A stretch of 64,000 nt of DNA. Source: Mobula hypostoma (taxonomy: Eukaryota). A program made the position numbers and the translations under genes. Where the stretch lies: assembly GCF_963921235.1 (NCBI RefSeq), contig NC_086097.1, positions 109,556,001 through 109,620,000 on the forward strand, read 5' to 3'. The notes under the pieces were generated by a model that was not told the DNA's origin, did not search any database, and saw only the letters and a program-made list of their open reading frames with translations. Each line of letters opens with the position of its first letter. Within the stretch, counting starts at the first letter, position 1. Below, piece after piece: positions 12,902 to 15,900 of the stretch.

Positions 12902-15900
12902 GGGTGCCCAGAGAACCCAGGTGGGAAGGGACACTGCCCAGTGATAACAAGGGAGGCGCAAGAGGGGCCCATTGTTCAGGTTGTGTTAGAAGGGCAGCTG
13001 ACACCAATGATGATAGATACTGGAGCCACGTATACTTGTGTACAGCCGCAGTCTGCCCTTCACCTTCCCATTTCAGGAAAATTCATTAAGACTGTAGGGT
13101 TCTCGGGAAAAACACAGTTGACACAATGTACAGCTCCAGTGAGATTAAGGATGGGCAGCAAAGGAATAGTTTTGCCGATATTAGCGTCCAAAGGAACTCC
13201 GGTGAATTTGCTAGGCAGAGATGCCCTATTAAAACTAGAATTAAAATTAGAATGTACCAGAAGTGGGTTGAGTGTGGAAAGAGTAAATGCTCAATTACTA
13301 GTGCGGGAAGTTAAGAAAACTAATGTCTTTTGGATAGGAGACATAGAAGATCAGATCTGGGAAACCTGGGAAAAATGGAAAAAGGGCGTGCAGGCTATAT
13401 TGCCCCAGACTGTAGCGCCCAAATCCGAGTTACATTGCACAGTGATTTTTGACAAAACTCAGAACAGAGAGTTAGAGGAGAGATGGTACAGGGAGGCAGG
13501 TAACCGGCAGCACCTAAGAGGAGAAGCTATAATAATTGGGAGACAAGGGGCAGCCCTGCAAGTCAGGTGGAATACTTTCTTGGAGAAATGGTACAGGATA
13601 CCGGAAGCTGAGCCCCACATAACGCCGCTGGTAAATGAGGGACATCAGTCTAAAGACCTAGGACCCTTAGTAAAGCACGCTGGAATCGTGGCAGTGTGGA
13701 GGAAAATTATGCCACGGGTGTGGGTATCGGGAGACAACGACTACTTTAAAATAGAGGTAGATATAGATATGGTAGGAACAGCAAAGGAGGTCGAAGTAAC
13801 TCCCCAACCACACCTGACGTTATTGGGTAAGGAGGAAGGTCAGCAGAGAGATAATAAGCTGGATAGGTTACCATCTATTCTGTGGTCACAACATGACACG
13901 GATGTAGGGAAAATAAGAACAGCTAGTCCGGTAGAAATAAAGCTGAAAAAGGGAGCAGTTCCACCCAGGAGACCACAATATCCCCTGAAACCAGAGGCAG
14001 AAGAGGGAATAGCGCCAACGATACAGGGGCTACTGAAGGCAGGAGTACTCAAAAGGACAGACAGCCCATGTAATACCCCACTGTTACCTGTCCTTAGAGC
14101 GTATAAATCTAAATGGAGACTGGTGCATGACTTGCGAGCGGTGAATGAGGTAATGGAGGACTGGCCAGCGGTAGTTCCCAACCCACGCACGCTCTTGACT
14201 AATGTTCCACCAGAGGCAGACTATTTTTCGGTGATTGATTTGTGTTCGGCTTTTTTCAGCGTTCCCCTGGCAGATCAGTGTCAGTACCTATTTGCATTTA
14301 CATACAGAAACAACCAGTATACCTACACTAGAATGCCTTAAGGATTTAAACATTCACCACACGTATTTAATCAAGTGTTAAAGGCGGACCTAGAGGGCAT
14401 ATCGTTGGAAAGTACATTGATACAGTATGTGGATGATTTGTTGATTTGCTCCGAAAGTGAGGGACAGTGTGAATAGGATACCATAACCCTTTTAGAGAGA
14501 CTGGCGCATGGAGGGCATAAAGTATCTAGAAAGAAGCTGCAATTTTGCAAGCAACAGGTAGAATACCTAGGTAGAGTGATATCCAAGGGAGCGAAGGCGA
14601 TAGCGCCGGATCATATTGAGGCTATAACTAAAGCTCCCAAGCCCCAGCCAGTGAGACAGATGATGACGTTTCTGGGACTGACAGGATATAGTTCAGATTG
14701 GATTGGGGAATATGCTGAAATTGTAACGCCACTAAGGAAAATAATGAAGGAAGCAGGACATACAAGCTTGGGGAGTAATCTACAGTGTGGAAACAGAGAG
14801 GTTTTAAAAAGAGCAATGGAGATCCCATACAGCACTGTCAGCAGATTTTAGATCTAATAAAAGCGCTGATGAAACCTAAAGCACTGGCTATAGTAAAATG
14901 CCAGGCACATAAAAAAGGAAACGATACAGTAACAAAGGGAAATCAAGCTGCAGATGAAGCAGCCAGGAAAGCGTCAGGGTGTACATCCGTTGTCAGCGCA
15001 CCCCAGGTAAGTCCAGAGCCGGAACCTATAGTAGAGGACCTAATTGAAATACAGGGAAAGGCAACTTTGGCAGAACAAACTCTGTGGAGACAAAGGGGGG
15101 GGGGGCAAGCAAATCCCAGAAGGCCTATGGACCACGGAAGATGGCCTACTGGTAGCTCCCACCCCTTTACTGACTATCCTGATCTCAGAAGCACATGGGA
15201 TGGATCATTGTGCAAGGGGGGAAGTAATAAGAAAAATAAAAAGGATGGATTTTGGTCGCCTTATTTACAGGCTTCAGTAGACCATGTGTTGTCACAGTGC
15301 GAGGTATGTGTGCAGAATAATAATCGGAAAGGAATTACAACCCCAATAGGTCATATACCCGTACCTGAAGGGCCATTTAAACACCTAGTGATTGACTATG
15401 TAGACATGATAAAAACAATAAGAGGGAAAAGATACATGTTGATGGTAATCGACAGATTCAGCAGATGGGTAGAGGTAGTATCCTCAAAAGATCAAGGGGC
15501 AGGAACAGTGGTGAAATTCCTGACAAACGAAGTGATCTCAAGGTTTGGGATACCGACAGAAATTAGCTCAGACAATGGTTCAGCTTTCATTCAAAAAGTG
15601 GTCAAGTTAGTTCTGCGAGCACTGAGAATAAAGCAAAGATTTGGATGTGTGTATCACCCTCAGTCGCAGGGTATGGTGGAAAGAATTAACGGGACCTTAA
15701 AAACCAAACTAAACAAAATCTGTGTAGATACTAAACTTAATTGGGTCGATGCACTACCATTAGTATTAATGAGTTACCGCATGCAGACTAATCGGATGAC
15801 ATGTCTAACACCGCATGAAATGCTAACTGGAAGGCCCATTCCAGTGCCCCAGTGGAGAGGACCATATAAAGGGCCTAGTTTAGAACAACTGGAATTGGAA

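Follow-up and report, generated by a model that had tools for sequence, protein, structure and literature searches.

A predicted CNPase-like 2H phosphoesterase domain between protease and reverse transcriptase in the Pol of an endogenous retrovirus of the ray Mobula hypostoma

The enzymes of retroviruses are usually taught as a short list comprising the protease (PR), the reverse transcriptase (RT)/RNase H, the integrase (IN), and sometimes a dUTPase. Between 2013 and 2024, 2H enzymes of coronaviruses, rotaviruses, phages, and poxviruses were shown to destroy 2'-5' oligoadenylates (2-5A) or cyclic GMP-AMP (cGAMP), two nucleotide messengers of innate immunity. That 2H domains also occur in retroviral polyproteins was reportedly recognized by Mazumder et al. 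in 2002. Naville and Volff 2016 (PMC4977317) mention a CNPase domain in epsilon-like endogenous retroviruses (ERVs) of ray-finned fishes with reference to Basta et al. 2009 (J Virol 83:10152), and Iyer et al. 2022 (PMC9503650) mention the 2H domains of walleye retroviruses with reference to Mazumder et al. 2002. Here, we describe a related case in a stretch of 64,000 nucleotides (hereafter the window) on contig C1 of the 3.48 Gb genome of the batoid ray Mobula hypostoma (NC_086097.1, positions 109,556,001 to 109,620,000, forward strand). The window contains a class-I (gamma/epsilon-like) ERV, and within its pol region, window positions 13319-13798 probably encode a 2H phosphoesterase of the CNPase branch, for which a cyclic-phosphate chemistry is proposed.

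The domain lies in a stop-free open reading frame (ORF) of 479 residues (12902..14341, forward strand) that spans the protease, the insert, and the start of the RT. Pfam assigns residues 20-116 to RVP (E 8.6e-9) and residues 403-476 to the first part of RVT_1 (E 1.6e-7). The relevant features are as follows:

12959..13249, forward strand: retroviral aspartyl protease (PF00077 RVP, E 8.6e-9, ORF residues 20-116)
13319..13798, forward strand: predicted folded core of the CNPase-like 2H phosphoesterase (residues 11-170 of the modelled segment; AlphaFold2 pLDDT 93, pTM 0.86; VIA-align Z 17.7; Foldseek E 5.7e-7)
13433..13444, forward strand: first catalytic motif, H-C-T-V (His and Thr conserved; in register with LHCT of mouse CNPase and of the host CNP exon)
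13616..13627, forward strand: second catalytic motif, H-I-T-P (private Pro where relatives have Leu; in register with HITL of the host CNP exon)
13799..14107, forward strand: low-confidence linker between the 2H core and the RT (pLDDT 55-63 at the end of the modelled segment; highest dN/dS)

An initial annotation, made from the letters alone, had pointed to an in-frame, stop-free insert with two H-x-T motifs 61 residues apart. Both motifs (ELHCTVIF and EPHITPLV) are indeed located in the insert, with His codons starting at 13433 and 13616 and the stated spacing of 61 residues, which corresponds to residues 49 and 110 of the segment 13289-13840 used for modelling. The length given for the insert, about 160 residues between the markers "...LSVER" and "LWSQHD...", did not hold: these markers enclose about 199 residues, and 160 is the length of the folded core alone.

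The structural assignment rests on an alignment, designated A1, of the window segment with 48 relatives that were selected for a length of at most 365 residues and good coverage. Based on these 49 sequences, AlphaFold2 gave a model with a predicted local distance difference test score (pLDDT) of 93.0 and a predicted template modelling score (pTM) of 0.86, 161 of the 184 residues reaching a pLDDT of at least 90; with the single sequence as input, the pLDDT was 35. Foldseek found 51 matches to the PDB at E<=1e-3 (best E 5.7e-7), and among the 41 rows listed, 39 bear the title of a CNPase catalytic domain, one (1woj) is titled "human phosphodiesterase", and the remaining one is the RICH protein of goldfish. 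VIA-align, run on Foldseek's top 998 chains, ranked mouse CNPase first (4wdb, Z 17.7, root-mean-square deviation (rmsd) 3.2 Å over 164 residues), with 38 mouse or human CNPase entries at Z 16.1-17.7 and whole-domain superpositions at an rmsd of 2.5-3.7 Å. Next came RICH (Z 13.8) and residues 635-832 of 6u05, an entry for a fungal RNA kinase (Z 13.5), where the matched part is presumably a tRNA ligase's cyclic-phosphodiesterase domain, and then bacterial cyclic phosphodiesterase (CPDase), LigT, and 2'-5' RNA-ligase-like proteins (Z 8.4-9.4). No 2',5'-phosphodiesterase of the NS2, VP3 C-terminal domain (VP3-CTD), or AKAP7 type appeared among the PDB matches listed for Foldseek and VIA-align. When a protein atlas was searched by features, clusters of the tRNA_lig_CPD and 2H-SAK types came up with a score of 0.96. 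Within the modelled structure, His49 and His110 start strands E50-55 and E110-115, each of which is followed by a helix, and this strand-helix unit at each His is the repeat expected of the two-lobed 2H fold. According to the model, the domain is a 2H phosphoesterase, and it is placed on the CNPase side of the superfamily because of its neighbours in Foldseek, VIA-align, and the protein atlas. The AlphaFold and Foldseek check suggested by the initial annotation has thus yielded a confident 2H model with CNPases as the nearest PDB structures.

Among viral structure models (BFVD), the best match was Q2VF30_1 (E 6.7e-12, TMq 0.83), to which no name is attached, followed by walleye epidermal hyperplasia virus 1 (WEHV-1; Q9WHI8, E 2.8e-10, TMq 0.73) and walleye dermal sarcoma virus (WDSV; A4GTG3, E 5.1e-9, TMq 0.73). 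Weaker matches include Acb1 as well as coronavirus ORF4b and ORF2 models (E 7.6e-3 to 8e-2), the latter two at E 1e-2 and 3.9e-2.

At the level of sequence, the relationship to CNPase is faint and largely confined to the motifs. A phmmer search of the segment against PDB sequences returned chance hits only (E>=1.2). When the A1 alignment was searched as a profile hidden Markov model (HMM), 15 PDB sequences were found at E<=10, 14 of them CNPases (E 1.5-2.1) in which "plHcT" of the profile is aligned with "vLHCT"; the top row was an unrelated DUF305 protein (E 0.5). Comparison of the family with the host's own CNP exons by hhalign placed "S-PHVTL-V--G" on "SRSHITLACAPG" (PHVTL with SHITL; E 0.0011, 17 % identity) and "plHCTl" on "mLHCTT" (E 0.011). 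In CNPase, the mutated catalytic residues named in PDB entry titles are H230, T232, H309, and T311. The two His residues of the insert are predicted to share one active site because of these motif alignments to CNPase and the whole-domain superposition. One residue of the window copy is atypical: the 2H motif pair is otherwise H-x-T/S with a hydrophobic fourth residue, and the fourth residue of motif 2 is Pro (HITP).

Conservation of these residues was followed in the ray's own genome and in a wider set of relatives. Out of 186 candidates, 150 were scored, and 126 matched at E<=1e-3 in the own genome. We examined 50 of these copies, namely the best 30 including the window (L001-L030) and 20 near-full-length ones (L031-L050; 74-86 % identity) that were chosen regardless of stops. 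The first His and the first Thr are each kept in 49/50 copies, the second His in 47/50, and the second Thr in 48/50. The residue after the second Thr is Leu in 47/50, Pro in two (the window and L014), and Arg in one. Its codon is CTG in 27/30 copies of subfamily A, CCG in two (the window being one of them), and CGG in one, and it is TTG in all 16 of 16 copies of subfamily B. For the wider set, 144 relatives were aligned to the family HMM, and counts refer to those covering the respective column: the first His is present in 106/116, the first Thr in 111/118, and the second His in 118/126, while both His residues occur in 89 and the full HxT/S pair in 84 of the 98 relatives that cover both motifs. 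Some misses are to be expected, since most of the wider sequences are decayed ERV copies. The column after the second Thr contains Leu in 111/124, with no Pro among the residues listed. The suggestion that HITP is a Leu-to-Pro change after insertion (CTG to CCG) thus holds in the light of the sister codons (CTG or TTG) and of the wider relatives alike.

These data bear on the question of whether the fold could have been retained for a non-catalytic purpose, that is, as a spacer, an assembly element, or a host-factor binder within Gag-Pol. Such a role could draw on the faster evolution of the 2H stretch as compared to the RT (mean p-distance 0.70 vs 0.52), on the Pro that the window copy tolerates in motif 2, and on the binding of retroviral Gag by cellular CNPase. 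A purely structural role is nonetheless very unlikely because the catalytic residues are the ones conserved best: only seven columns of A1 reach at least 90 % conservation, among them His110, Pro109, and Leu113, and a spacer would not keep the tetrad at 20-30 % identity, as seen with the HxT/S pair in 84/98 relatives.

Further evidence comes from the ratio of nonsynonymous to synonymous substitution rates (dN/dS), which was calculated pairwise after Nei-Gojobori from natural copies only, with neither consensus nor ancestral sequences. For the domain, dN/dS was 0.46 within subfamily A (435 pairs), 0.48 within subfamily B (136 pairs), and 0.23 between A and B (510 pairs, dS 0.50); L031 and L032, an intermediate group (C) with an indel, and L039, which has a mid-sequence frameshift, were left out of these three comparisons. 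Between A and C (L031, L032), the value was 0.40. For a comparison of the domain with its flanks, 30 A copies were set against 16 B copies, the omitted B copy having a domain translation identical to that of another. The protease gave a dN/dS of 0.220 (codon bootstrap 95 % 0.142-0.334) and the 2H core 0.229 (0.148-0.357); the N-terminal RT was lower at 0.154 (0.103-0.232), and the linker to the RT (q287-330) showed the highest value of the segments (0.313). During the divergence of subfamilies A and B, constraint on the 2H core was thus as strong as that on the protease. A comparison with sister ERVs had been proposed in the initial annotation as well; both H-x-T motifs are kept in them, and dN/dS shows purifying selection, so that fold, motif conservation, and selection together bear out the claim of a CNPase-like 2H domain between PR and RT. 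Of the three findings by which the initial annotation would have been overturned, none was encountered, the third being judged by the register of both motifs with those of CNPase.

The domain is widespread beyond this ray. A HMMER search of 1.84 billion cluster representatives yielded 140 relatives at E<=1e-3 (35 at E<=1e-10), and the matched stretch lies between RVP and RVT_1 in 17 of the 48 relatives scanned with Pfam. For 20 relative clusters that were looked up, a source name was available in 11 cases, all 11 being teleost proteins (Danio, Syngnathus, Corythoichthys, Festucalex, Phyllopteryx, Pelmatolapia, Sarotherodon, Hypomesus, and Pleuronectes), and a word-index search of longer proteins added three from Hypanus sabinus (72 % identity) and one from Mobula hypostoma (94 % over 39 % of the query). 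Across 15 teleost polyproteins and the window, 2H and RT distances are correlated (Mantel r 0.76, a value reached in 0/5000 permutations) in a test that is liberal on related sequences. Judged from these sequences, the pattern fits one old acquisition followed by co-divergence with the RT across ray and teleost ERVs.

As a side observation, several Pol fragments that hold the domain are annotated as host genes, for example, as "E3 ubiquitin-protein ligase Siah1 isoform X1" in Hypanus sabinus and as "neuronal calcium sensor 1" and "RAD9B" in Sarotherodon galilaeus. These names probably stem from chimeric gene models.

Given this distribution, it is practically untenable to regard the insert as a chance ORF, an assembly chimera, or a host CNP exon transduced recently into a single provirus, even though host-gene transduction does occur in retroviruses and a host CNP gene is present on contig C91. 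A chance ORF is disfavoured by the 140 protein relatives and the 126 own-genome matches, with the motifs conserved across them; the latter are scattered over many contigs, and the PR-2H-RT order recurs in the 17/48 scanned relatives, which are from teleosts. The identity of only 17 % to the host CNP exon argues against a recent capture from this host, and the CNPase model PF05881, with six matches in a genome scan, hit host CNP exons exclusively and no ERV copies. Genome copies, relatives, shared gene order, and low identity thus refute all three variants.

The host CNP exons themselves occur twice on C91 (33776800-33781654 and 33955102-33961841; L067-L072), about 180 kb apart and with identical scores, the exon order of the first copy being scrambled. 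This doubling reflects either a duplication or an assembly artefact.

If the ancestral domain was active, the opening of 2',3'-cyclic phosphates is, by analogy, our tentative choice as its most likely reaction, because the entry titles of CNPase and bacterial CPDase structures name that activity. RICH opens 2',3'-cyclic phosphate to 2'-phosphate, and the matched part of 6u05 presumably carries out the same conversion. The structural neighbours favour this chemistry over an NS2/VP3-type 2-5A reading. In the proposed course of events, ribosomes reading through the gag TAG at 12899-12901 would produce Gag-Pol, the domain would be carried into particles as part of it, and the viral protease would probably cut the domain free at putative sites. 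Together, the H-x-T motifs would make up one active site that needs no metal and opens 2',3'-cyclic phosphates on RNA ends or nucleotides to 2'-phosphates. This reaction may reverse or hide what host metal-independent RNases produce; alternatively, the enzyme might provide damaged primers or templates with a free 3'-OH.

Several points weigh against a CNPase-branch enzyme with this chemistry. PF05881 matches 0/49 A1 members at E<=1, the window segment included, and at their cut-offs the Pfam 2H families match neither the segment nor any of the 48 scanned relatives or 49 A1 members; even at E<=0.01, a 2H-family hit was found in 0/48 relatives. The single Pfam hit of the segment is Acb1 (PF23474, itself a 2H family; E 0.023, 14.9 bits against a cut-off of 27), and this model matched 1/49 A1 members, likewise below the cut-off. 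Pfam-A accordingly contains no model that recognizes the retroviral 2H family, despite at least 140 cluster representatives. The pairs underlying the dN/dS values are non-independent and include post-integration neutral decay, which pushes all values towards 1. The window copy has Pro at a position where none of the residues listed among 124 relatives is Pro, and an active enzyme is very unlikely to be made from it today. A shared fold does not fix the substrate, as this tetrad also occurs in 2H enzymes that act on 2-5A or cGAMP (Nomburg et al. 2024, PMC11410667). Finally, no enzyme assay of any retroviral 2H domain was found in the literature searched, from which subscription journals were largely missing.

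The substrate range of these same-tetrad enzymes also underlies another proposal, in which the domain acts as a phosphodiesterase against 2-5A or cyclic dinucleotides such as 2'3'-cGAMP, delivered by the virion or acting in the infected cell, and blunts OAS-RNase L or cGAS-STING signalling. Fold class and His tetrad are the same as in the enzymes of that study (Nomburg et al. 2024, PMC11410667), Acb1 is the segment's single Pfam hit, and Acb1 and coronavirus ORF4b/ORF2 are found among the weaker BFVD matches. Selection equal to that on the protease would also suit an important accessory function. The host encodes both pathways: OAS1_C exons are clustered on contig C78 (E 8.6e-27 for the best), and the ligand-binding domain of STING is encoded as well (E 1.7e-17), so that targets of 2-5A or cGAMP cleavage exist. 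Yet CNPase, RICH, and 6u05 (Z 13.5-17.7) stand far above the LigT-type enzymes (Z 8-9), and in BFVD the viral 2-5A/cGAMP phosphodiesterases rank far below the retroviral and CNPase matches, which leaves an immune-messenger nuclease rather improbable. Teleosts, which hold most of the relatives, are not known to have OAS; if they lack it, 2-5A could not be the conserved target.

The OAS-like genes of the ray form a tandem cluster of about three at C78:31043513-31173778, and a single STING gene is located on C21.

Returning to the CNPase-branch enzyme, its boldest version would be a virion-carried enzyme that, at entry, either destroys a nucleotide alarm (2'3'-cGAMP, 2-5A, or 2',3'-cyclic nucleoside monophosphates) or turns the 2',3'-cyclic-phosphate ends that host RNases leave on genomic RNA or primer tRNA into 3'-OH ends usable by the RT. 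We regard it as an unlikely scenario. Either activity, if true, would make it the first enzyme of a retrovirus to act on RNA ends or second messengers, and ray and teleost retroviruses would have kept it over very long periods, in Pol in some lineages and, provided that the BFVD labels are right, in Env in others.

The provirus around the domain comprises the following further features:

8216..8219 (5' copy) and 18771-18774 (3' copy), forward strand: AAGG, probable 4-bp target-site duplication, abutting both ends; the exact ends of the long terminal repeats (LTRs) are inferred
8220..8817, forward strand: 5' LTR (homology runs to 8817; likely end ...ACA at 8815)
8820..8837, forward strand: stretch resembling a primer-binding site (PBS), starting TGG..., directly after the 5' LTR
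9490..10771, reverse strand: nested fragment of a very high-copy non-LTR retrotransposon, between leader and gag (RT ORF 9586-10806, RVT_1 E 4.3e-23)
10762..12901, forward strand: gag remnants in three frames (ORFs 10762-11241, 11242-11709, 11604-12437, 12533-12901)
12737-12784, forward strand: CCHC zinc knuckle of gag (zf-CCHC, E 2.4e-5)
14108..14851, forward strand: reverse transcriptase with YVDD present (RVT_1; translation)
14779..16431, forward strand: RNase H and integrase (RNase_H E 3.4e-6; rve E 1.8e-16; MLVIN_C, a C-terminal domain of the murine leukaemia virus (MLV) type, E 9.6e-13)
16595..17947, forward strand: env, gamma-type transmembrane/coat protein (TLV_coat E 2.2e-13)
18175..18772, forward strand: 3' LTR (blastn against the 5' LTR)

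An LTR pair, a PBS-like site, gag, stop, and pol in one frame, the order PR-RT-RNase H-IN, an MLV-type IN C-terminus, and a gamma-type env together identify the element as a class-I (gamma/epsilon-like) ERV. The gag terminator TAG at 12899-12901 is in the same frame as pol, a gag-TAG-pol read-through arrangement that is known from gamma- and epsilonretroviruses. Within 5' gag (10762-11709), two long ORFs are rich in Glu, Lys, and Arg and have no Pfam match.

The two LTRs (8220-8817 and 18175-18772) are 97.8 % identical, with 13 mismatches in 598 positions and no gaps (blastn). If neutral substitution runs at about 1-2.4e-9 per site and year, as in vertebrates, the 2.2 % divergence would place the integration some 5-11 million years ago; a range of 5-20 million years is given, and the event would be older if the host's rate is slower. 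The PBS-like 15-mer, or a one-base variant of it, adjoins sister copies: the complement of the stretch reads ...TGTTTGTGACG in the window and ...TGTTCGTGACG in many sister copies, a difference at a CpG site that is consistent with post-integration decay. A search for a tRNA matching the complement of the 15-mer returned only ERV copies, and ARAGORN found no tRNA gene at the two loci tried.

The window copy is a dead fossil, with in-frame stops in the RT at 14339-14341 and 14474-14476, a shift of frame somewhere in 14779-14851, where ORFs in different frames overlap, a broken gag, the nested retrotransposon, and the private Leu-to-Pro change. It is the combination of Pro in motif 2 with the broken pol that makes present-day activity so unlikely. 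Assembled contigs from four sequencing runs cover 30/30 bins of the provirus, but all eight runs considered are only guessed to be RNA, one being probably DNA, and the contigs are uninformative on transcription, strand, or level. In 4/4 runs there are contigs in which 37-40 other letters separate about 9487-9490 from 10772, and other copies must therefore exist without the nested fragment, over which the summed word depth is 1e4-1e5 as compared to tens elsewhere. In run X2, which is probably DNA, a single contig connects 9109 with 15954, skipping 6844 bases with GT..AG ends and a short side of 28 letters, and has the shape of a spliced env-type transcript or of its DNA copy.

How, then, does this locus compare with what has been described? 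A retroviral 2H/CNPase domain is already known as a kind, and a specialist would not be surprised by it, since the domain type was reported in fish retroviruses in 2002 and 2009; the caution in the initial annotation that the architecture might not be wholly new was justified. Some neighbouring surveys are silent on the matter: the text of Nomburg et al. 2024 (PMC11410667) contains no mention of retroviruses or walleye viruses, that of Xu et al. 2018, a large survey of ERVs, none of phosphodiesterase or CNPase, and in that of Han 2015 on shark ERVs the words "domain" and "accessory" are absent. Neither a structure-based placement in the CNPase branch nor selection estimates nor a report from rays was found in the literature searched. 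The present analysis adds a cartilaginous-fish (ray) host, a high-confidence CNPase-branch model, evidence of selection, and more than 100 natural copies for comparison.

With the CNPase-encoding ERVs of fishes, the window element shares the membership of class I and a sequence resembling 2',3'-cyclic nucleotide 3'-phosphodiesterase, and its teleost relatives carry the stretch between RVP and RVT_1. It differs in its host, a batoid ray, with the closest named proteins coming from Mobula hypostoma and Hypanus sabinus, and in that the domain is in frame inside Pol, whereas the fish sequences are described as "additional open reading frames" in PMC4977317. The walleye retroviruses likewise possess a retroviral 2H module, and WEHV-1 (Q9WHI8) and WDSV (A4GTG3) are among the top viral matches in BFVD. 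However, BFVD labels both proteins "Envelope polyprotein", while a Pfam search of the window env found no 2H domain. If the labels are right, the same fold may reside in different genes of different fish retroviruses.

Among cellular proteins, vertebrate CNPase and goldfish RICH are the best structural matches (Z 17.7 and 13.8) and have the HCT and H-[IV]-T-L signatures in register, but identity is only 10-16 %, and the Pfam CNPase model recognizes 0/49 members. The N-terminal domain and membrane anchor of CNPase are absent from the window domain, which is flanked by PR and RT instead, and the ERV family is variable at the position, two residues N-terminal to the second His, that is Arg in the host CNP exon. 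Coronavirus NS2/ORF4b, rotavirus VP3-CTD, and AKAP7 resemble the domain in having a 2H fold, in part within a viral protein or polyprotein, and their metal-independent hydrolysis, a chemistry also predicted for the ray domain, serves in immune antagonism; they match it much more weakly in structure (BFVD E 1e-2 to 4e-2) and belong to another branch of the superfamily, and their substrate is demonstrated, while that of the ray domain is proposed. Phage Acb1 and the LigT-like phosphodiesterases of avian poxviruses similarly direct a 2H/LigT-like fold against nucleotide second messengers (PMC11410667), and Acb1 provided the Pfam hit, albeit at 14.9 against 27 bits and with weak structural matches.

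Set beside all of these, the retroviral 2H phosphoesterase would represent a fifth enzyme, one that a large group of retroviruses from fishes kept under selection as tight as that on their protease. Given that other viruses use 2H enzymes against 2-5A and cGAMP, it is therefore a testable candidate for counter-defence or for RNA repair in reverse transcription.

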